From positions 1-19,024 of the forward strand of contig JBBSWJ010000028.1 of assembly GCA_038046345.1 (NCBI GenBank): 19,024 bases of DNA, read 5' to 3'. Shown piece after piece: positions 7,403-17,058 of this stretch. The DNA comes from Nanobdellota archaeon. Its GTDB lineage: Archaea; Nanobdellota; Nanobdellia; SCGC-AAA011-G17; JACPNG01. The position numbers and the translations under genes are program-made. Below the pieces are notes generated by a model that saw only the letters and a list, made by a program, of their open reading frames with translations, ran no database searches and was not told where the DNA came from. The first letter of the stretch is position 1; every line of letters starts with the position of its first letter.

Positions 7403-8860
7403 ATGAAGGTAGTAACTTCTAGTAAGGCTGTTGAGTCAGTTGTTGATGAAGCTTTAGTAATCCCTATTTTCGAAGGGGTCAAGCCAAGTAAGGATTTATC
7501 TAAAGATCTACAAAAAGCTTTGCTAAATAAAGATTTTAAGGCTGAACAATATGAAGTTTATCTTTCCTATCATGAAAGCTTCAAATCAAAAAGGGTTATT
7601 TATGTAAGCCTTGGTAAGGAAGAAAGTGTTACGCTAGAAAAGATAAGGCGAGCATACCATCAAGTTCAAAAAAAGTTAAACTCCCTTAAAATAAAATCTT
7701 TCTCGCTGAGTTTGCCAAAAACTAAACTTAAACTGGAAGAAGTAACTGATGCAATTCTTACCTCAATTTTGTTAAGTAATTATAGGTTTGACAAGTATAA
7801 ATCTGATGATAAAGACAAAGGCACAAGATTTTCTCAGATAACTGTTTTAGATGATAATCCTAAGCTGAAAAATGTGATAGATCATGCAGTTATTGTAGCT
7901 AAAGGGGCTAACTTTGTGAGAGACTTAGCCAATGAGAATGCTAGGGATAAAACTTCATTGATCTTGGAGGATATTGCGAGAAAAACTGCGAAGGAGAACA
8001 AGTTAAAAATAACTGTCTTTGATGAAAAAGATCTTAAAAGACTTGGTATGAACTTATTATTAGCAGTTGGTGCTGGGGCTGTTACTCCGCCTCGTTTGAT
8101 TGTTTTAGAATATCATGGTAATCCGTCATCTAAGGATGTTTATTCTTTTGTTGGTAAGGGTATTATTTTTGATTCTGGTGGTTTAAATTTGAAGCCTACT
8201 GGATCTATTGAGGATATGCGTGCTGATATGACCGGGGCAGCAACTGTTCTCGGGCTATTAAGAGTTGCATCTCAGCTGAAGATTAAGGCTAATTTGGTTG
8301 GTGTCATGGCAGTATGTGAGAATGCTATCTCAAATGGGGCGTATAAACCTGGTGATATTTTTAGGTCTTATAGCGGGAAAACAGTATACATAGGGAATAC
8401 CGATGCTGAAGGCCGCTTAATACTTGCTGATGCTTTGTCTTATTCAATAAAAAAGTACAAGCCAAAATTAACTGTTGACATGGCAACTTTAACTGGGGCG
8501 GCAGTTGTTGCGGTTGGTACAAAGATAAGTGCTATTCTTGGTAACAATGAAAAAGCGATCAATAATATAATCTCCTCTGGTAAGAAGGTAGGAGAAAATT
8601 TTCATGAGTTGCCTTTGTTTGAAGATTATAATGAGCTTATGAAAAATAATTTGGCCGATATAAGTAATATTTCATCTGAGAAATTTGGTCCTGGAACGAT
8701 TACTGCTGCGTTATTCTTGCAGAATTTTGTGGATAATCAACCATGGGTTCATTTAGATATTGCTGGACCAGCATTTATCAGCTCAGAATACCATTACGTA
8801 GGTCCTCAAGCTACGGGAGTTTGTGTTAGAACATTAATTAATTTCTTAGAGAATATTTAA
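7403..8860 (+). CDS. pepA: M17 leucyl aminopeptidase
   Basis: VGKGIIFDSGGLNLKP, DMTGAA, NTDAEGRLILADAL, DMATLTGA, WVHLDIAG. Start moved from TTG 7346 to ATG 7403 because of the promoter position. Confidence 0.96.
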   Translation: MKVVTSSKAVESVVDEALVIPIFEGVKPSKDLSKDLQKALLNKDFKAEQYEVYLSYHESFKSKRVIYVSLGKEESVTLEKIRRAYHQVQKKLNSLKIKSFSLSLPKTKLKLEEVTDAILTSILLSNYRFDKYKSDDKDKGTRFSQITVLDDNPKLKNVIDHAVIVAKGANFVRDLANENARDKTSLILEDIARKTAKENKLKITVFDEKDLKRLGMNLLLAVGAGAVTPPRLIVLEYHGNPSSKDVYSFVGKGIIFDSGGLNLKPTGSIEDMRADMTGAATVLGLLRVASQLKIKANLVGVMAVCENAISNGAYKPGDIFRSYSGKTVYIGNTDAEGRLILADALSYSIKKYKPKLTVDMATLTGAAVVAVGTKISAILGNNEKAINNIISSGKKVGENFHELPLFEDYNELMKNNLADISNISSEKFGPGTITAALFLQNFVDNQPWVHLDIAGPAFISSEYHYVGPQATGVCVRTLINFLENI

Positions 8861-9909
8861 GTAACATATTTTTTCTGTGGTTTTATTAATAGATGGTACA
8901 GTATTTGTATTAGATATTCCACATCGTTAAGGTTACAAATTCCTGCGCAAGAATGTATATTCCTTACAGGCACTGATATTGTTGTAGATGGTATCCCTTC
9001 CCGGGATAACATAATAGATGTTGCGTCGGTTGTTCCATAATCATCAACTTCTAATTGTAGCGGGATACGTTTTTCCTTTGCAATTTCTTGTAACAGCTCG
9101 TTAATTTGCCTGTTACCAATCATATCTGCGTCCTTTATTGTGATATATGGACCAGTACCGATAATACATCTCCCTCTAAGTTCTGAATCTTTTGCAGTAG
9201 TAGCATCTACAGCTATCCCCCAATCAGGTTTAAGATTCCATACAGCTGTTTTTGCTCCATACATTCCTATCTCTTCTTGTACTGTAAACACAAAATAAAT
9301 ACTTTCTTTTGTTTTTATTTGTTTAAGTCTCCTTGCAAGTTCAATGAGCGCGTAGCATCCAACCCGATCATCTATTGCTTTTCCGCTGATTATTTTTTCG
9401 CTGCCAAGTTGATGTACGGATTGTATTGGTATCATATAATTTCCTATTTTTACCCCCTTCCTTTTGAGTGTTGTACCATCAACTCCTGCATCAACATAAA
9501 GATCTTCTAATTTTGGCAGTTCAGTTATGTCTAGTGCATCATGGAATTGCGGGAATGATATCATCCCCTTGCATATTTCCTTGTTCTTGTCGTTGAGTAT
9601 TACAACTGGTTGTCCTATCAGGCTTATTGTGTCTAAACTTCCGACTGTTGATATCCTTAAGAATCCATTTGTTTCTATCTTTTTAACCATCAAACCTATT
9701 TCATCCATGTGCGCTGCAAGCATTATTCTTGTTCCGCTTCCTTTTTTTAGGCATATAAGATTTCCAAATTTGTCTGCGTATAGCTTATCAACGTATTTTT
9801 TCATTTCTTTTTTAATCATATTACGAACGTTGATCTCATTTCCAGAAGGGCCTAACTCTTTCATAAGTTTAAATAAAAGCTTTGTATTACCAGTGTTACC
9901 TTGTTTCAT
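8857..9909 (-). CDS. M42 (TET-type) aminopeptidase
   Basis: GPSGNE, AAHMDEIG, GKAIDDRVG, TVQEEIGMYGA, AVDAT, GTTDA, RNIHS: full M42 metal-ligand set. Last gene of the minus-strand operon, 21 nt downstream of the OTC stop. Confidence 0.93.
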   Translation of the reverse strand: MKQGNTGNTKLLFKLMKELGPSGNEINVRNMIKKEMKKYVDKLYADKFGNLICLKKGSGTRIMLAAHMDEIGLMVKKIETNGFLRISTVGSLDTISLIGQPVVILNDKNKEICKGMISFPQFHDALDITELPKLEDLYVDAGVDGTTLKRKGVKIGNYMIPIQSVHQLGSEKIISGKAIDDRVGCYALIELARRLKQIKTKESIYFVFTVQEEIGMYGAKTAVWNLKPDWGIAVDATTAKDSELRGRCIIGTGPYITIKDADMIGNRQINELLQEIAKEKRIPLQLEVDDYGTTDATSIMLSREGIPSTTISVPVRNIHSCAGICNLNDVEYLIQILYHLLIKPQKKYVT

Positions 9910-9930: not shown

Positions 9931-10830
9931 TTAATAAGCTTTATGTTTCAGTAGCCATATTAATATTGCTTTTTCTATGTGTAATCTATTCTCAGCTTGA
10001 TCGAGTATAATACTTTGTTTTCCGTCTATTACTTCTGTTGTTACTTCCATACCTCTTATTGCTGGCATGTCATGCATGAATATTGCATTTTTTTTGGCTC
10101 GTTTCATAACATTAGAATTAACTTGGTATTTTTTGAACATTATTTGCCTAATGGTTTTTTTCCATGCCGGAATATTATACGACATCCAGCTGTCTGTATA
10201 AACTACATCTGTTGGTTGTACTTTCTTTGGATTACGAACCCATGTTACATTACTTTTTGTTTTATCAAATAGTTCTTTGAGCGGTTTATTTGGCCCGGCA
10301 AGTATTAGCTTAAAGTTTAACTTTTTTGATGCTAACATCCAGCTGTTTGCTACATTTGTTCTGCAATCTCCATAATATGCAATTGATGCCTTCAATGTGT
10401 TTTTCTTTTCTTTTATTGTTAGTAAATCACCTAATATCTGGCAGGGATGGTACAAGTCTGTAAGACCGTTTATTACAGGTACTTCAGAGTGCCCGGCAAA
10501 TTCTTCTAATTTTTCATGTGAGTAAGTTCTTGCCATTATGATATCTGCCATTCTTGACATTACTTTTGCTGTGTCTGATAAGCTTTCTTTTCCTTTGTGT
10601 AATGGGGAGCTTGTTACATCATAGTAAATAGCATGTCCTCCTAAATGGGTCATACCTATCTCGAAGCTTAGTCTTGTTCTTAATGAAGGTTTTTCAAATA
10701 ACATGATTAATGTTTTTCTGTGAAGTACTTTGTTATACAAGTCTGGATTCTTCTTTATTTTCTGTGCTAAAGTTATTATATTAAATATTTCTTGAGCTTC
10801 TAAGTCATTTAAGTTTAATAAATGTCTCAT
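9931..10830 (-). CDS. arcB: Ornithine carbamoyltransferase (probably catabolic)
   Basis: FEKPSLRTRLSFE (carbamoyl-phosphate site), HPCQILGDL, YTDSWMSY, HDMPA, AENRLH; ATGA overlap with the upstream gene; in an operon with carbamate kinase. Confidence 0.9.
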   Translation of the reverse strand: MRHLLNLNDLEAQEIFNIITLAQKIKKNPDLYNKVLHRKTLIMLFEKPSLRTRLSFEIGMTHLGGHAIYYDVTSSPLHKGKESLSDTAKVMSRMADIIMARTYSHEKLEEFAGHSEVPVINGLTDLYHPCQILGDLLTIKEKKNTLKASIAYYGDCRTNVANSWMLASKKLNFKLILAGPNKPLKELFDKTKSNVTWVRNPKKVQPTDVVYTDSWMSYNIPAWKKTIRQIMFKKYQVNSNVMKRAKKNAIFMHDMPAIRGMEVTTEVIDGKQSIILDQAENRLHIEKAILIWLLKHKAY

Positions 10831-12140
10831 AAGATTCTCTTCAACAGGTTATTTAGTTTTATTTTTCCTGCGTCTTTATACGTATATTCAACAGTTACCC
10901 ATGGCTTGTTTATTTTTAGTATTTTTTGTAAGTTTACTGGAGTTCCATCTATAACTATATCACATTTAACTCTATTGATTGTTTTTTGTAAATCTTTTAT
11001 TTGTTTTTTATTATATCCCATTGCAGGCAATAATTTACCTATTCCGGGGTATTTTGTAAAAGTTTTTTTTATTTCTCCAACTGCTATTTCTCTCGGGTCT
11101 ATAATATGCTTGGCATGGTATTTCTTTGCTGCTAGAGTTCCAGCGCCGTAGGTCATGCCTCCATGTGTAAGTGTTGGTCCATCTTCTACTATGAGCACGT
11201 TTTTATTGCGTATCATGCCTGGATTAGATGGAATTAATTCAAGTGATCCGTATAAAATTTTAGCTTTAGGATTAACTTTCTTAGTATTATCTTCAACAAT
11301 TTTTACATTTTTCTTATCAGCAGTATTATACTTACTTATTATCACTACATCTGCCATTCTTAGGTTTACAGCTCCAGGATAGTACATAAGTTCGTGTCCG
11401 GGTCTGTGAGGATCTGTTAAGACAATGTGTAATCTTGGTTGGTAAAATGGCAAATCATTATTTCCTCCATCCCATATGATCACATCAGCTTCTTTTTCTG
11501 CCATTCTTATTATTTTTTCATAGTCTACTCCGGCATAAATCACAATACCCTGTTCTATCCATGGTTCGTATTCTTCTCTTTCTTCTATTGTACACTTTTG
11601 TTTGTCTAAATCACTGTACTGTGCAAATCTTTGGCATATTTGTTTTTTTAAGTCTCCATATGGCATTGGGTGGCGTATGGCTACAACTTTCTGTCCTTTG
11701 TCATAAAAATATTTTGCAACGGCTCTTGATACTGATGATTTTCCGCATCCTGTTCTTACTGCGCATATTGCAACAACTGGTTTTTTGGAAGTAATCATTG
11801 TGTGGTGTCTGCCCAGCATTCCGTAGTGTGCGCCTGCTGCTAGTACTCTTGATCCTAAATCCATAACTTCTTGGTGTGATAAATCAGAATAGGCGAGGAA
11901 TACAAAATCTATCTTAAGTTTTTTAATTAGTTCCTCTATGTTTTTTTCATCGTAAATCTTTATCCCTGCGGGGTATAATTTTCCTGCCAGTTCTTTTGGG
12001 TATTTTCTTCCTGAAATGTTTGGTATCTGTGCTGCTGTAAAGCAGACTACATTATATGTTGGATTATTTCTAAAATATGTATTAAAATCATGAAAATCTC
12101 TCCCGGCTGCTCCAGCAATGATCACTCTTATTTTATCCAT
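10827..12140 (-). CDS. arcE: COG2403 'predicted GTPase' / cyclic 2,3-diphosphoglycerate synthetase-like family; probable arginine synthetase (ArcE)
   Basis: GAAGRDFHDFN, FTAAQIPNISGRKYP, Walker A AVRTGCGKS, RHPMPYGDL, EEREEYEP, WDGGNND, EDGPTLTHGGM, PAMGY; sandwiched between carbamate kinase and OTC. Start is likely ATG 12140 after GGGGTGA (track uses GTG 12146). Family assignment is confident; the ArcE activity is inferred. Confidence 0.8.
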   Translation of the reverse strand: MDKIRVIIAGAAGRDFHDFNTYFRNNPTYNVVCFTAAQIPNISGRKYPKELAGKLYPAGIKIYDEKNIEELIKKLKIDFVFLAYSDLSHQEVMDLGSRVLAAGAHYGMLGRHHTMITSKKPVVAICAVRTGCGKSSVSRAVAKYFYDKGQKVVAIRHPMPYGDLKKQICQRFAQYSDLDKQKCTIEEREEYEPWIEQGIVIYAGVDYEKIIRMAEKEADVIIWDGGNNDLPFYQPRLHIVLTDPHRPGHELMYYPGAVNLRMADVVIISKYNTADKKNVKIVEDNTKKVNPKAKILYGSLELIPSNPGMIRNKNVLIVEDGPTLTHGGMTYGAGTLAAKKYHAKHIIDPREIAVGEIKKTFTKYPGIGKLLPAMGYNKKQIKDLQKTINRVKCDIVIDGTPVNLQKILKINKPWVTVEYTYKDAGKIKLNNLLKRIL

Positions 12141-12142
12141 CT

Positions 12143-13057
12143 TCACCCCTTTAGTATATGTGTTCCTCCTTTTCCATTTAAAGCTTTCTTCATCGTGTTT
12201 GGATTTGTTATAATAAATTTTTTACCACCATTTTTTAGAAAGTTTATCCCAGCTAATATTTTTGGTTGCATACTGCCAACACCGAATTGTTGTTCTTGTA
12301 TGTAACCCTCTGCTTGCTTTATTGTCATTTTATCAATTCCTTTTTGATTTTGCTTTCGGTAGTTTAGTGCTGCTTGTTGTACATCTGTTAAAACTAATAG
12401 AGTATGTGCTTTGATAGAATTACCAAGAACTTGTGATGCTAGATCCTTGTCAATTACTGCTTCTACTCCTTTGTATCCATTATTTGTTTTTATTACAGGT
12501 ATTCCGCCTCCGCCTGCTGCTATTACAATATCTTGTTTTTTTATTAAATGTTTAATACTGTTAGCTTCAAGTATCTTAATTGGTTTTGGTGATGGAACTA
12601 TTCTTCTGTAGCCTTTACCTTTTTGGAATAGGTATGGAAGTTTCTTTTTTTTAAAAATATTTGGAGAGCTATATGCTGGGCCTATTGGTTTTGTTGGATT
12701 CTTGAAAGCATTATCTTTTTTATCAACTAATACTTGTGTTAGCAATGATACTACATGAGCTTTTGGTGAATTGTTTAGCACACTCTGTTGTATCAGATAG
12801 CCTATTTCACCTTCAGATTCTGCAACGCACACTTCTAATGGTAAGGCATAAGCTTTTCCCAGTGCTTCTTCTGTTCTTATTAAGATGTTCCCAACTTGAA
12901 AGCCATTACCATGTGTTATTATAATATTATACTGTTTGTGTAATGAAACAATTTTTTTGGTGGTATTTTGTATAACTCTTTGTTGGTCTTTAATTGAATA
13001 TTTTCCTTTTTTTACAAGAGCATTTCCTCCTAGTGCTATAACAATTATTTTTTTCAT
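12143..13057 (-). CDS. arcC: Carbamate kinase
   Basis: VIALGGNAL, THGNGFQVG, TQVLVD, NPTKPIGP, RRIVPSPKP, GGGGIPV, GVEAVIDKDLAS, LTDV, GSMQPKI. Confidence 0.95.
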   Translation of the reverse strand: MKKIIVIALGGNALVKKGKYSIKDQQRVIQNTTKKIVSLHKQYNIIITHGNGFQVGNILIRTEEALGKAYALPLEVCVAESEGEIGYLIQQSVLNNSPKAHVVSLLTQVLVDKKDNAFKNPTKPIGPAYSSPNIFKKKKLPYLFQKGKGYRRIVPSPKPIKILEANSIKHLIKKQDIVIAAGGGGIPVIKTNNGYKGVEAVIDKDLASQVLGNSIKAHTLLVLTDVQQAALNYRKQNQKGIDKMTIKQAEGYIQEQQFGVGSMQPKILAGINFLKNGGKKFIITNPNTMKKALNGKGGTHILKG

Positions 13058-13062
13058 ACTGC

Positions 13063-14307
13063 TTATCTTTTTATACGGTTACATATTTTTATTGAGTGTT
13101 CTATAACACTTAAAGCTTCATCTATTTCTTTAGTTGTTACGACATAAGGTGGGATTATCCTAATACTTTTTTCACCTGCGCCCATAAGTACAAGCCCATT
13201 TTTTAGGCATTGTTGTACAAAGTTTTTTCTTACATTACCATCGCTTACATCAAATCCGACCATTAGGCCAAGCCCGCGTACATCATACATTTTATTTTGT
13301 TCACTTATTTCTCTTAATCTTTTTCTTAAGTATTCTCCGTGTTTTAGATTCTTTGATAATAAACCATCTTTTTTTATTGTTCTTATTGTTGCAACACCCA
13401 TTGCCATATCAATTATCTGCCCTCCTCCCCATGTGCTTGATATTGCGCCTGGTTCTGGAAAGTTTTTCTTGTTTGTTATAGCTGCTCCTACACCTAATGC
13501 CTTTGCGCTGCTCATTATGTCTGGTTCAATTCCAAAGTGTTGGAATGCCCACCATCTTCCTGTTCTTCCCATTCCTGCTTGTACTTCATCTGCTATGTAA
13601 GGTATCTTTTTTCTTTGGCATATATTACGCACTTTTATTACCATGTTTTTGTCAGGCACTCTGTATCCCCCTTCGCCCTGTACATGTTCTAATATCACAA
13701 AAGCAATGTCTTCAGGTGTTACTTCTTGTTTGAGTATTCTTTCTAATTTTTCAGATGCTTCTTCGCTAAATGGTAGCCGCTCTGTTGGTATTGTAAAGAA
13801 TCCTTTTTTGTGTATGCTATTAGAGTTTGTTAATGATAAAGCGCCGAGTGTTCTGCCATGAAATGCGCCTTGAAATGATATGCATGTTTTTGCGTGAGGT
13901 CGTAACCTCATTGCTATTTTCATACAGTTTTCTACTGCTTCAGCTCCTGAACTTATTAAGAATGCTGCGTTTAATTTTTTTGGGGTTATGCTTAGTAGCT
14001 CCTCTAACAGACTTACTTGTTCTTCTACAGCAAAATCTGCGCCTGCATATTTTATTGGTGTTCTTTTCTTGTATTTTTTTATAACCTTTAAATGTTCTGG
14101 GTGGTTGTATCCAAGCGGGTTTGATGCGATTTGTGATGCGAAATCTAAAAATGTGTTGCCATCTAAGTCTTTGAAGTAGCAGCCTTTTCCGTTTTTGCTG
14201 TACACGAATGGATATTTTGTGACCCATGCTCCGTTTAATCGTTCTAGTTTTTTTAGTACAACTCTTGAATTAGGTCCAGGTATTTTTGTTTTAATTAGTA
14301 TGCTCAT
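13063..14307 (-). CDS. Class-III PLP aminotransferase (ornithine/4-aminobutyrate omega-aminotransferase-like)
   Basis: DLDGNTFLDF, LGYNHP, SGAEAVEN, GAFHGRTLGALS, EHVQGEGGY, DEVQAGMGRTG, PDIMSSAKAL (PLP Lys), RGLGLM, IRIIPP. Confidence 0.92.
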   Translation of the reverse strand: MSILIKTKIPGPNSRVVLKKLERLNGAWVTKYPFVYSKNGKGCYFKDLDGNTFLDFASQIASNPLGYNHPEHLKVIKKYKKRTPIKYAGADFAVEEQVSLLEELLSITPKKLNAAFLISSGAEAVENCMKIAMRLRPHAKTCISFQGAFHGRTLGALSLTNSNSIHKKGFFTIPTERLPFSEEASEKLERILKQEVTPEDIAFVILEHVQGEGGYRVPDKNMVIKVRNICQRKKIPYIADEVQAGMGRTGRWWAFQHFGIEPDIMSSAKALGVGAAITNKKNFPEPGAISSTWGGGQIIDMAMGVATIRTIKKDGLLSKNLKHGEYLRKRLREISEQNKMYDVRGLGLMVGFDVSDGNVRKNFVQQCLKNGLVLMGAGEKSIRIIPPYVVTTKEIDEALSVIEHSIKICNRIKR

Positions 14308-14407
14308 TTGTTCTTTTGCTTCCTCCCCTCTTGTATACTCTGTATCTTCTTTTAAGTTTTTTTTCTTTTTTTGATTTCCTTCTGTCTAAATTTGTGTATT
14401 CTCCCAT
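14291..14407 (-). CDS. Possible 38-aa Arg/Lys-rich small ORF
   Basis: Manual translation gives MGEYTNLDRRKSKKEKKLKRRYRVYKRGGSKRTNEHTN*. It starts 1 nt after the ALDH stop and overlaps the aminotransferase start by 17 nt. It could be a chance ORF in purine-rich DNA. Confidence 0.3.
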   Translation of the reverse strand: MGEYTNLDRRKSKKEKKLKRRYRVYKRGGSKRTNEHTN

Positions 14408-14408
14408 G

Positions 14409-15872
14409 TTATTCAACCTTGTCAATTTGTGCTTTTTGTAATTTTCCTGAGTAATCAATGTATACTGTTTTTATTTCAGAAAATTCTTCAATGCCCATAA
14501 TACCTGCTTCCCTTGTTCCGTTTCCGGTTTGTTTTATTCCTCCGAATGGTAAGTGTACTTCTGCTCCTATTGTTGGGCTGTTTACATAAACAATTCCTGT
14601 TTCTATTTCTTCAATTGCTTTCATTGCGTATACAATACTTTTGGTGTAGATGCTTGAGCTTAATCCATAGTTTGTGTTGTTGATTTTTTTTATTGCTTCT
14701 TGTATATTTTTTATAGTTATTACAGTTAAAAATGGCCCGAATATTTCTTCTTGTGCTATGCGTTTATTTGTATTCTTTACTTCAAATATTGTTGGTGAAT
14801 AAAAATTTCCATTGATTTTAGGAATGAATCCTCCGCATAGTAATTTTCCTTCTTTTTTTCCAATGTCAACATATTTTTGTACTTTTTCTACTGCTTTCTT
14901 GTTTATTAGTGGGCCAACGTCTGTTTTTTTATTTAATCCGTTGCCTAATCGTAGTTTTTTTGTTTTTGTTAATAACTTGTTTAGTAATTTTTTCTTAATT
15001 TTTTTGTGGACTAATAATCTTGATGTAGCAGTGCATCTCTGGCCGCTTGTTCCGAATGCTCCCCATAATATTCCTTCAACTGCATTATTTAGGTCTGCGT
15101 CTTCCATGACTAAGATTGCATTCTTTCCGCCTAATTCCAATCCAACTTTTTTTATTCCCGCGTTTTTTGTTATGTACAATCCTGTGTCTCTGCTTCCTGT
15201 AAATGATATTGCATTTACTTCTTGGTGTTTTATTAGTGCTGCGCCAACGCTCTCTCCCTGTCCAGTTACTATGTTCACTACTCCGTCTGGTATACCCGCT
15301 TCTTTGAATATTTCAAGCATTGAGTACACTGCTCTAGGTGTATCAGAACTTGGTTTTATTACGCATGTATTTCCGCATATTAATGCTGGGGCTAGTTTCC
15401 ATGATGGTATTGCTATTGGAAAATTCCATGGTGTTATTAATCCAACTACCCCGATTGGTTGTCTTATTGTGTAGCATGATTTATTCCTCATTTCTGATGG
15501 TGTAGTATTTCCAAATAGTCTTCTGCCCTCTCCCGCCATATACTCAAATATGTCTATACCTTCTTGAACGTCTCCTAATGTTTCCTTTAGTACTTTTCCC
15601 ATTTCTTCTGTTATACCTCTTGCAAGTTTTTGTTTTCTTTCTTTCATTATTTCTGCAATTTTTAGTAATATTTGGCCTCTTCTTGGTGCTGGTGTATTTT
15701 TCCATTTAGGTAGTGCTTTTTTTGCTGTGATTATTGCTTTTTCTAAATCTTTTTCATTGCCTAACGGGAATCTAGCTATTGGTTTTAGGGTTGCTGGATT
15801 AAAATCTATAAAGTACTTTTTTGACGATGGTTTTACATTTCTCCCGTTGATTAGAAGTTCATATCTTTTCAT
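14409..15872 (-). CDS. NAD(P)+-dependent aldehyde dehydrogenase (semialdehyde dehydrogenase-like)
   Basis: GEGRRLFG, ITPWNFP, KPSSDTP, FTGS, LELGGKN (catalytic Glu), GQRCTA (catalytic Cys), EEIFGP, YGLSSS, PFGG. Confidence 0.95.
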   Translation of the reverse strand: MKRYELLINGRNVKPSSKKYFIDFNPATLKPIARFPLGNEKDLEKAIITAKKALPKWKNTPAPRRGQILLKIAEIMKERKQKLARGITEEMGKVLKETLGDVQEGIDIFEYMAGEGRRLFGNTTPSEMRNKSCYTIRQPIGVVGLITPWNFPIAIPSWKLAPALICGNTCVIKPSSDTPRAVYSMLEIFKEAGIPDGVVNIVTGQGESVGAALIKHQEVNAISFTGSRDTGLYITKNAGIKKVGLELGGKNAILVMEDADLNNAVEGILWGAFGTSGQRCTATSRLLVHKKIKKKLLNKLLTKTKKLRLGNGLNKKTDVGPLINKKAVEKVQKYVDIGKKEGKLLCGGFIPKINGNFYSPTIFEVKNTNKRIAQEEIFGPFLTVITIKNIQEAIKKINNTNYGLSSSIYTKSIVYAMKAIEEIETGIVYVNSPTIGAEVHLPFGGIKQTGNGTREAGIMGIEEFSEIKTVYIDYSGKLQKAQIDKVE

Positions 15873-15881: not shown

Positions 15882-15979
15882 ACTTTTGTTATTGTTATAA
15901 CTCTTTTAAGCATATAAAAATATTATGTTTATTATTTTTAACACAAAACATTTTAAGTATAGACATTGTCCAATTCTAA

Positions 15980-16053
15980 GGGCTCGTAGCATAACCTGGA
16001 AAGTGCGACCGGCTTCGGACCGGTTGATCGGGGTTCAAATCCTCGCGGGCTCA
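15980..16053 (+). tRNA. tRNA-Arg (anticodon TCG at 16015-16017)
   Basis: Cloverleaf: acceptor GGGCTCG/CGGGCTC, D-stem GCAT/GTGC with GGA (A20, an Arg identity element), anticodon stem ACCGG/CCGGT with loop CTTCGGA, T-arm CGGGG-TTCAAAT-CCTCG, discriminator A. No intron and no encoded CCA; AAAACATTTTAAG promoter upstream. Confidence 0.95.
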
Positions 16054-16059
16054 TTATAA

Positions 16060-16530
16060 TTATTTATGTCTACTATTCAAATCGTGTCTTACGCGTTTTT
16101 CTAGCTCTTCATCATCAAATAAGCGCATTGCATGATCTGTTATAACATGTACCATGTTGAATAACCCTGCATCATTATAGCGGTTGTTGATCGTTTTGTT
16201 GTTTACAAATACTCTTCCGTCTCTTAGAACGAGTACTCTGTGGTCGCTTGTTGAGCAGTGTTTAACAATTGTACCTTCGTTTGTTAAAACAGACGTATCG
16301 GTATAGACTAATGGTGATATCCAACATGGACATGGGTCACTCAGCATGGGATCACCCGCGCGACATAAGCGAAATACGTTGTGATAATCAGATATTTTTG
16401 TTGCGTTATCCGACACGTATCTGTTTGCTGGGATATAGCTTATGTATGACTGTGAATCTGATGCTTTGCATTCTATTAAAACATTGAATGCATGATCAAT
16501 TTGGGGTTCTTGTGCTGCTTCACTTGCCAT
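16060..16530 (-). CDS. Hypothetical protein, paralog of 16564..17058
   Basis: 156-aa ORF sharing H.FN..IE, H....LRDGR.F.......RY and LF.DE.LE..VR blocks with its neighbour; has its own promoter copy. Confidence 0.75.
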   Translation of the reverse strand: MASEAAQEPQIDHAFNVLIECKASDSQSYISYIPANRYVSDNATKISDYHNVFRLCRAGDPMLSDPCPCWISPLVYTDTSVLTNEGTIVKHCSTSDHRVLVLRDGRVFVNNKTINNRYNDAGLFNMVHVITDHAMRLFDDEELEKRVRHDLNSRHK

Positions 16531-16533
16531 TTA

Positions 16534-16566
16534 TGTCTTCCATTTTGGTTGTGGTTTGTAAGCTTA
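16534..16566 (-). repeat. 33-bp direct repeat copy 1 (promoter of 16060..16530)
   Basis: tgtcttccattttggttgtggtttgtaagctta; 30/33 identical to 17060..17092. Confidence 0.9.
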
Positions 16567-17058
16567 TTTTGATTGTTCTAAAGCTTTTCTTACTAGTTCT
16601 TCCAAACGTTCATCTTCAAACAAGAATTTTGCGTAACGTAATATGTATGGTAATGCTCCTAAATATCTTCCAAAAGTAGATTTGTAGCGTTCATCAGTTA
16701 TTTCGTCTCTTATAAATAATCTACCATCGCGTAGAGCCATTAAGTTATGTGTAGTTATAGCAGCTTGTCTAATAATCTTACCATCTTTAACTACAACCCC
16801 TTTTAGGTGGCCTAATTGGCCTACATTGTGTATCTGTTCTTTATCCCATGTGGCTCTTATTATGCCTGAGTTAGCTACTTTAGGATCATACATTCCATAC
16901 AATACCAACTTCTCGTGTTGATCATATAAGCCTGTTACTCCAGCATGTACATCCAAATGTGTTAGCATGTAGTAGCATTCACCACATGATCTTGGAGGAT
17001 GACCTTCTATCACCGCGTTGAACACATGAACTCTTTGTTCTTCTACTTCATTTACCAT
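16564..17058 (-). CDS. Hypothetical protein, paralog of 16060..16530
   Basis: 164-aa ORF with the same shared blocks; its stop codon lies inside the promoter repeat of the downstream paralog. Confidence 0.75.
   Translation of the reverse strand: MVNEVEEQRVHVFNAVIEGHPPRSCGECYYMLTHLDVHAGVTGLYDQHEKLVLYGMYDPKVANSGIIRATWDKEQIHNVGQLGHLKGVVVKDGKIIRQAAITTHNLMALRDGRLFIRDEITDERYKSTFGRYLGALPYILRYAKFLFEDERLEELVRKALEQSK

Follow-up and report, generated by a model that had tools for sequence, protein, structure and literature searches.

Several described pathways of arginine breakdown share enzymes with the locus considered here, a run of six genes in a 19,024-nucleotide contig of a Nanobdellota archaeon (the window, by which the whole of that stretch is meant). 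Followed along the minus strand, the run encodes an aldehyde dehydrogenase (ALDH), a class-III (omega) aminotransferase (AT), carbamate kinase (ArcC), a homolog of arginine synthetase (ArcE), ornithine carbamoyltransferase (OTC, encoded by arcB) and an M42 (TET-type) aminopeptidase, all co-oriented according to the list of open reading frames (ORFs) and to Pfam and NCBIfam searches. Among the closest described systems is the arginine synthetase pathway of Thermococcus kodakarensis, which consists of ArcE (TK2200), ArcB and ArcC (Michimori et al., 2024, PMC11032458; 2026, PMC13260591) and whose ArcE is reversible and able to support arginine synthesis in vivo (PMC11032458). The two systems share these three enzymes, a lack of arginine deiminase (ADI) and, as predicted for the window, a yield of two ATP per arginine. 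The arc genes of T. kodakarensis are scattered, whereas those of the window are clustered with genes for the AT, the ALDH and the peptidase. Furthermore, T. kodakarensis directs ornithine through the ornithine aminotransferase (OrnAT) TK2101 to proline, and its carbamoyl phosphate also supplies pyrimidines and hydrogenase maturation, whereas glutamate is the likely end product in the window genome, since neither pyrroline-5-carboxylate (P5C) reductase nor PyrB was found there.

Two further systems invite comparison. The classical ADI pathway, arcABC with the ArcD antiporter, likewise employs OTC and carbamate kinase to make ATP from arginine; in the window the ATP-forming ArcE stands in for the deiminase, and while the ADI pathway exports ornithine via ArcD, no antiporter was found in the window genome, for which internal use of ornithine is proposed. 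The ornithine-to-glutamate chemistry proposed here, an omega-AT followed by an NAD-dependent ALDH, is shared with the RocF-RocD-RocA pathway of Bacillus subtilis, and as such the chemistry of RocD and RocA is already known. Ornithine arises from arginase in B. subtilis, whereas in the window it would arise from ArcE and ArcB with a gain of ATP. Moreover, the DPANN AT and ALDH lie outside the RocD (TIGR01885) and RocA (TIGR01237/PRK03137) families and, judged by their sequences, look like non-orthologous replacements of the two. The novelty lies in the joining of this chemistry to ArcE, in enzyme clades that are non-canonical, and in conservation across DPANN archaea. A literature search for ArcE clustered with AT and ALDH genes, or for arginine synthetase in DPANN or Woesearchaeota, found none (supplementary Fig. 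S2B of the ArcE paper lay outside its coverage), in agreement with an earlier sequence-only reading of the window, which had not recognized the arrangement as a described operon.

We consider it fairly probable that the six genes form an arginine catabolic module in which the AT and the ALDH turn ornithine, by way of glutamate-5-semialdehyde (GSA), into glutamate within the cell; the substrates of the two enzymes, the co-transcription of the run and the direction of flux are what we infer from gene content and context. Specifically, the M42 aminopeptidase of the run and a neighbouring M17 peptidase would free arginine from imported peptides, a source that is probable because M42, M17, M32, M29 and M24 peptidase neighbours are conserved. 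ArcE would then convert arginine, ADP and phosphate to citrulline, ammonia and ATP, ArcB would cleave citrulline with phosphate to ornithine and carbamoyl phosphate, and ArcC would use carbamoyl phosphate and ADP to form a second ATP and carbamate. Transfer of the delta-amino group of ornithine to 2-oxoglutarate by the AT would give glutamate and GSA, the latter in equilibrium with P5C, and the ALDH would irreversibly oxidize the semialdehyde with NAD(P)+ to glutamate and NAD(P)H. Because the equilibrium of OTC is unfavourable in the catabolic direction and the ALDH step would be irreversible, OTC may be pulled forward without an antiporter. The net conversion would be arginine and 2-oxoglutarate to two glutamate, two ATP and NAD(P)H. 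The balance put forward in the sequence-only reading, arginine to one glutamate, two ATP and NAD(P)H, therefore needs amendment, as the AT requires 2-oxoglutarate and two glutamate would result unless a short glutamate dehydrogenase (GDH)-like enzyme encoded on another contig (C9) regenerates 2-oxoglutarate; with such recycling, arginine would give glutamate, three NH3, CO2, two ATP and two NAD(P)H.

Enzyme families and gene content of the genome

The AT (13063–14307, minus strand; 414 aa; PF00202, 307 bits, E = 3e-91) possesses the full set of omega-AT features, namely the PF00202 domain, the Schiff-base Lys, the Asp and Gln of DEVQ, the Glu of QGEGG, the Arg of FHGRT and a C-terminal Arg (IRxIPP). 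Its best NCBIfam model is PRK05769, at 339 bits against a cutoff of 552, and the best-matching relative of known structure is 7vno (E = 2e-62), taken here to be PH1423 of Pyrococcus horikoshii. PH1423 is classed as an ornithine delta-aminotransferase with lysine as a further substrate, and both it and TK2101 take ornithine as well as lysine (PMC9986279). To enzymes of this 2-oxoglutarate-dependent type the window AT is about 40% identical; the PRK05769 family has racemases among its close paralogs. The window AT falls in a separate clade, spread across DPANN and marked by an SQIASNPLGY motif; it bears its own signature, LDFASQIASNPLGYNHP, and has been given generic annotation only, often as '4-aminobutyrate aminotransferase'. 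The canonical ornithine aminotransferase (OAT) model TIGR01885 is not among the top 25 models for the AT and hence scores below 183 bits, against a cutoff of 378. We propose that the AT is an ornithine omega-aminotransferase using 2-oxoglutarate, and, by analogy with its characterized archaeal relatives, it may accept lysine too.

The ALDH (14409–15872, minus strand; 487 aa; PF00171, 569 bits, E = 7e-171) similarly displays the hallmarks of its superfamily, including the PF00171 domain, the catalytic Cys, the general-base Glu (ELGGKN), and the EEIFGP and PWNFP motifs. Its best NCBIfam model is GucD, an alpha-ketoglutarate semialdehyde dehydrogenase (KGSADH; NF042993), at 498 bits against a cutoff of 770, and a second model of this type, haloarchaeal 2,5-dioxovalerate dehydrogenase (NF052305), gives 463 bits against 750. 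Models for P5C dehydrogenase (P5CDH) give 408 bits against 648 (PRK03137) and 376 against 660 (TIGR01237), with TIGR01236 outside the top 25, and those for succinate-semialdehyde dehydrogenase (SSADH; TIGR01780) and aminobutyraldehyde dehydrogenase (ABALDH; PRK13473) give 391 against 646 and 396 against 615, respectively. The catalytic-Cys motif GQRCTAxSR comes closest to the GQKCSAxSR of both P5CDH types sampled and is unlike those of SSADH-like enzymes (GQSCIA) and ABALDH (GQDCTA). The residues flanking this Cys are presumably those that bind GSA in ALDH4A1 structures, though KGSADH could share them. The protein, whose clade is DPANN-wide and annotated only as 'aldehyde dehydrogenase family protein', is accordingly proposed, on the strength of its motifs and setting, to be an NAD(P)-dependent GSA dehydrogenase.

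The three enzymes between the pair and the peptidase are more readily assigned. ArcE (10827–12146, minus strand; 439 aa) aligns with its Thermococcales orthologs from end to end, those of Thermococcus sp. PK, T. atlanticus and P. horikoshii showing 58–61% identity to it over 97–100% of the length. It matched no Pfam or NCBIfam family and is faintly similar to cyclic 2,3-DPG synthetase, a weak likeness also reported for the arginine synthetase TK2200 (PMC11032458). By homology it is an ortholog of the ArcE-type arginine synthetase, with the predicted reversible reaction of arginine, ADP and phosphate to citrulline, NH3 and ATP. The product of arcB (9931–10830, minus strand) scores above two NCBIfam cutoffs for OTC (PRK00779, 346 bits against 306; TIGR00658, 306 against 281); an assignment as putrescine carbamoyltransferase was rejected, that model giving 261 bits against a cutoff of 500. 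ArcC (12143–13057, minus strand) exceeds the cutoff of PRK12352 (327 bits against 266) and falls below that of TIGR00746 (340 against 358). The genome thus combines OTC and carbamate kinase with no detectable ADI, the pattern by which an arginine synthetase pathway is recognized.

This genome (G000), of a DPANN archaeon from groundwater that is Woesearchaeota-like to judge by the names given to its nearest protein relatives, comprises 821 kb in 35 contigs and is 97% complete. The ALDH and AT of the arc run are its sole PF00171 and PF00202 members, ArcC is its only AA_kinase-family gene and arcB its only OTC/ATCase-family gene. Searches of the genome did not find ADI (PF02274), any AA_permease_2, AA_permease or DcuC gene, PyrB (there being no second OTC/ATCase-family gene), P5C reductase, proline dehydrogenase (ProDH; by tblastn or Pfam), ArgB, LysZ, ProB, or 2-oxoacid:ferredoxin oxidoreductase. 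Since no PyrB was found, ArcC would be the only sink for carbamoyl phosphate; since no ArgB, LysZ or ProB was found, ornithine and GSA would not be obtainable from glutamate; and since no P5C reductase was found, P5C would not be convertible to proline. With antiporter, ADI, PyrB, P5C reductase, ArgB and ProB all undetected, ornithine is left without another evident fate.

The GDH-like candidate for recycling 2-oxoglutarate is an ELFV dehydrogenase of 371 aa whose GPGKGGIR motif is of the GDH type, and its gene adjoins that of a 2-oxoacid dehydrogenase E1 alpha subunit (L082, 702–1733). In one relative (G002; L095, G002:C19, 724–3798), genes for 2-oxoacid dehydrogenase E1 beta and E2 lie directly upstream of a ureohydrolase-ALDH-AT series. 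A complex of this kind could act as the 2-oxoglutarate oxidizer where no ferredoxin oxidoreductase was found.

Conservation of the pair beside arcE

Conservation was assessed in 60 genomes of the same family or order, and because these are related and not independent samples, the counts are descriptive and carry no statistical test. ArcE occurs in 20 of the 60 genomes, and 16 of those 20 encode an orthologous ALDH (57–67% identity). ArcE, ALDH and a class-III AT share one contig and strand in 12 of the 20 and lie on separate short contigs in three more. Among the 40 relatives with no ArcE match, only four have the orthologous ALDH, two of them being incomplete yet OTC-bearing, and ArcE, ALDH and AT are all missing in 36. 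The usual order is arcC-(M32)-arcE-arcB-ALDH-AT-M42-(M29), of which the window's ALDH-AT-arcC-arcE-arcB-M42 is a rearrangement; the consensus arcC-arcE-arcB-ALDH-AT-M42 is co-oriented in at least 10 genomes of at least six families, with variable gene order. Such variation among co-oriented clusters argues for selection on proximity, and the recurrence of the same genes in synteny in many related genomes argues that the arrangement of the window is not due to chance. The ALDH and AT genes share 4 nt in two relatives, and 4–11 nt lie between them in two others; in most relatives M42 directly follows the AT, and ALDH-AT-M42 is the tightest conserved unit.

The pattern extends beyond these relatives. 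The gene order of the window recurs in a Pacearchaeota contig (L100) and in a 'Micrarchaeota' metagenome-assembled genome (MAG; L107), and a split order is seen in Aenigmarchaeota (L106); in all three, a GDH-like ELFV dehydrogenase gene adjoins the module or lies within a few kb of it, and the GPxKGG motif is present in all aligned ELFV dehydrogenases (G000, L100, L107). Synteny with arcE elsewhere, by which the sequence-only reading had proposed to judge the pathway, is therefore clear: it is seen in 12 of the 20 relatives that have ArcE and, beyond them, in another three DPANN lineages. In a comparison set of 80 ArcE loci from many phyla, arcE-arcC is immediately preceded by a canonical GSA dehydrogenase (TIGR01236, 770–782 bits against 614) in Neomarinimicrobiota, Nitrospina and Fidelibacterota, which are unrelated lineages of bacteria, a canonical OAT (TIGR01885, 556 bits against 378) lies 38 nt upstream of arcE in a Chloroflexota locus, a near-cutoff OAT is present in a locus of the Candidate Phyla Radiation, and in Zixibacteria an ALDH of the window type (52% identity) occupies the P5CDH slot beside arcE.

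Additional support comes from individual neighbours. In one relative (G017), a ProDH gene (PF01619, 98 bits) lies 72 nt upstream of the orthologous ALDH, and the product of ProDH is P5C/GSA. Four relatives have, in the AT slot, a PRK05769-type AT (495–542 bits against 552), PRK05769 being the family of characterized archaeal ornithine omega-ATs (PMC9986279). Another relative (G045) has distinct genes for an SSADH-like enzyme and an ABALDH in addition to the orthologous ALDH, which is therefore probably neither of these two enzymes. Taken together, the canonical enzymes beside arcE, the ProDH of G017, the PRK05769-type ATs and the genes of G045 suggest that GSA/P5C is most likely the aldehyde and ornithine most likely the amine.

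Several minor observations accompany these loci. In bacterial loci L038 (12315–14359) and L054 (6760–7896), a P5CDH or window-type ALDH, arcE and arcC are followed by the succinyl-CoA ligase genes sucC/sucD, a hint of an extended route that would carry arginine via glutamate and 2-oxoglutarate as far as succinate. A probe of all loci for APC permeases found a single bacterial ArcE locus with a permease directly upstream of arcE: in a Eubacteriales MAG (L070, 8469–9695), an APC-family permease occupies the ALDH/OAT/P5CDH slot before arcE-arcC-arcB, and one such locus is too few to speak of complementarity between export and consumption. In the G045 locus (L087, G045:C48, 5909–11267), the orthologous ALDH and the AT are parted by four inserted genes, which encode a HemL/GntE-like class-III AT (GntE, 527 bits against 525), an SSADH-like ALDH, a saccharopine-dehydrogenase-family protein and an ABALDH (615.5 bits against 615), and they may represent a diamine, GABA or lysine side route. 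The 777-aa ORF of one PRK05769-type AT (L085, G029:C4, 12348–14681) matches its family in two stretches, and the insert of some 340 aa between them may be an intein; in L100 a LAGLIDADG-like ORF lies between arcC and arcE. Near its N-terminus, the orthologous ALDH of a Woesearchaeota MAG (L009, G010:C20, 7393–8824) is interrupted by a frameshift or by two TAA stops in frame, reflecting either a pseudogene or an assembly error, and the ArcE of G052 holds one TGA.

Weighing the substrates of the pair

Despite the support outlined above, a number of findings weigh against ornithine and GSA as substrates or against a single pathway. The AT is 27–28% identical to canonical OAT (27% to the OAT of L025), lacks the NYHP and AYSAVNQGH substrate motifs of that family and reaches no curated equivalog cutoff; similarly, the ALDH passes no curated family cutoff, its best model being a KGSADH and not a P5CDH. 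The spacer between ALDH and AT contains the same TATA-like sequence, CTTAAAAG, that is found upstream of ALDH, making a second promoter possible, and ALDH and AT-arcCEB may thus form separate transcripts. Arc genes are missing beside the ALDH-AT-M42 triads of G002 (a 90% complete genome in which ArcE, OTC and ProDH were not found) and of Iainarchaeum (within the 8-kb flank examined), and in G002 an agmatinase-like ureohydrolase gene lies 53 nt upstream of ALDH-AT. The AT gene stands alone in two Micrarchaeota contigs, once (L099) near a deoxyhypusine synthase gene, and in G045 it directly follows an ABALDH gene that overlaps its start; the contexts in G002, Micrarchaeota and G045 hint at diamine substrates. 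The window genome encodes a true agmatinase (TIGR01230, 201 bits against 174), such that putrescine can be made. Lastly, G006 possesses a near-canonical ProDH/P5CDH pair besides the orthologous ALDH; B. subtilis also keeps two P5CDHs, RocA and PutC. The proposal of internal ornithine use advanced in the sequence-only reading is supported by comparative genomics: it gains from the synteny with arcE, from the canonical GSA dehydrogenase and OAT beside arcE elsewhere, and from its observation that the window has no antiporter, which holds in that no annotated ORF of the window matched any transporter family, and is weakened by the position of the AT and ALDH outside curated families.

These findings bear unequally on the alternatives. 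It is unlikely, though deserving of attention, that the pair acts in the breakdown of a diamine or omega-amino acid to which arginine is converted by a different route, either putrescine (from agmatine) through 4-aminobutanal to GABA, or GABA through succinate semialdehyde to succinate, with proximity to arc genes reflecting a general arginine or polyamine neighbourhood. The agmatinase of the window genome, the ureohydrolase before an arc-free ALDH-AT in G002, the overlapping ABALDH of G045, the deoxyhypusine synthase neighbour in L099, the common '4-aminobutyrate' label of the AT and its LDFASQIASNPLGYNHP signature, which we take to resemble that of eukaryote-type GABA aminotransferases, all favour such a role. 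The G002 ureohydrolase, however, scores below the agmatinase cutoff and is 25% identical to the agmatinase of the window genome, making it equally compatible with an arginase-like supply of ornithine and with conversion of agmatine to putrescine; SSADH-like and ABALDH enzymes have genes of their own in G045, where the orthologous ALDH is kept in addition, and the motif of the ALDH differs from those of both; the pair is most often placed immediately behind arcB, as seen in more than 10 genomes; and putrescine-to-GABA conversion, with a single ALDH, would lead nowhere and bring no evident benefit. Somewhat less probable is a route mainly for lysine (lysine epsilon-AT and aminoadipate-semialdehyde dehydrogenase), or a broad basic-amino-acid pair tied to M42, with ornithine as a side substrate. 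This would suit the close conservation of ALDH-AT-M42 even without arc genes, the acceptance of both ornithine and lysine by TK2101 and PH1423 (PMC9986279), and a series of sub-cutoff scores, 216 bits for the AT on LAT_fam, 372 for the ALDH on piperideine-6-carboxylate dehydrogenase and 198 (against 700) for M42 on an archaeal lysyl aminopeptidase model; yet 2-aminoadipate has no evident onward route in the 821-kb genome, and the bacterial OAT and P5CDH genes beside arcE, as well as the ProDH beside ALDH in G017, would be left unexplained.

The remaining alternatives carry still less weight. We give little credence to a lack of any pathway coupling, in which a general-purpose ALDH and AT would occupy an island of peptide and amino-acid catabolism with transcripts of their own: the possible promoter in the spacer, the 0.4–2 kb spacers or inserted genes that part ALDH from AT in several relatives, and the solitary AT of Micrarchaeota would fit, but the adjacency of the two genes is conserved across DPANN phyla, to the point of a 4-nt overlap in two genomes, co-occurrence with ArcE is strong, and both are sole family members in a minimal genome. 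That the ALDH is instead a 2,5-dioxopentanoate (alpha-ketoglutarate semialdehyde) dehydrogenase, ornithine losing both amino groups through the omega-AT and a class-I AT or ELFV dehydrogenase to give 2-oxoglutarate, appears very improbable. The two best models of the ALDH are of this type, some JGI annotations agree, and class-I AT and ELFV dehydrogenase genes are frequent neighbours; the scores, nevertheless, fall far short of the cutoffs of 770 and 750, the ALDH is positionally equivalent to P5CDH and is not set among pentose or hydroxyproline pathway genes, and we know of no described ornithine route via 2,5-dioxopentanoate. An anabolic direction, from glutamate through ornithine and citrulline to arginine with ArcE as synthetase, is scarcely credible. 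Though ArcE is reversible and supports arginine synthesis in vivo (PMC11032458), the ALDH cannot reduce glutamate to GSA and ornithine would have no biosynthetic source; this direction was rejected given that ArgB, LysZ and ProB were not found in the window genome and that its only AA_kinase is ArcC.

Returning to catabolism of arginine by way of ornithine and GSA, its implications concern archaea with minimal genomes and a poorly understood energy metabolism. Were the proposal true, internal disposal of ornithine would explain how the uphill OTC step runs without an arginine/ornithine antiporter, and the arginine synthetase pathway, described in 2024, would be extended into new lineages; in either event, testable functions are proposed for two widespread DPANN enzyme clades that have been annotated generically. 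A broader claim, which we regard as possible but on the whole doubtful, is that several DPANN phyla share a self-contained, transporter-independent energy module composed of a TET-type peptidase, ArcE/ArcB/ArcC, a DPANN-specific ornithine omega-AT, a non-P5CDH GSA dehydrogenase and a short GDH, which would convert peptide arginine to glutamate/2-oxoglutarate with two ATP from substrate-level phosphorylation. Such a module would provide these ultra-small symbionts with a main source of ATP, and two new functional enzyme subfamilies would be defined by it. ADI systems are reported to be beneficial to ultra-small Saccharibacteria (PMC8764695), and the DPANN module, if real, would be an archaeal, higher-yield counterpart.

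Layout of the run and neighbouring features

The junctions within the run are mostly tight. The AT stop codon (TAA, 13065–13063) is followed by 5 nt (GCAGT) and then by the arcC ATG at 13057, arcC/arcE and arcE/arcB overlap by 4 nt each, and 21 nt separate arcB from the M42 gene (8857–9909, minus strand; PF05343, 278 bits), the final gene of the run, whose 3' end is convergent with that of an M17 leucyl aminopeptidase gene. The sequence-only reading had placed ALDH and AT at the head of a co-oriented run, with the AT stop 5 nt before arcC, and both the ORF coordinates and the junction are exact; its five enzymes are all present, and the run counts six genes once the M42 aminopeptidase is included.

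The widest junction is the 101-nt ALDH-AT spacer (14308–14408, minus strand), which contains no oligo-T run and holds a GGGGAGG Shine-Dalgarno-like site as well as the TATA-like CTTAAAAG at about 14349–14356; the second copy of the latter lies approximately 31–39 nt upstream of the ALDH start (about 15903–15911). Inspection by eye revealed that a GCTTAWAAR-like element recurs some 30–50 nt upstream of the start codons of ALDH, AT, M42 (within the 3' end of arcB) and the orphan orfA and orfB (16060–17058), and is a likely archaeal TATA box. A scan for bacterial promoters and terminators gave 28 sites against 29 in shuffled sequence, its model set being bacterial and not applicable to an archaeon. 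A 38-codon Lys/Arg-rich ORF (MGEYTNLDRRKSKKEKK...) at 14291–14407 (minus strand) takes up the spacer and runs into the start of the AT; it may have arisen by chance in A-rich DNA, and small called ORFs also lie between ALDH and AT in the Pacearchaeota locus L100. Finally, a tRNA-Arg(TCG) gene (15980–16053, plus strand) is divergent from ALDH and lies about 110 nt upstream of it, and its position beside an arginine catabolic run is probably a coincidence.

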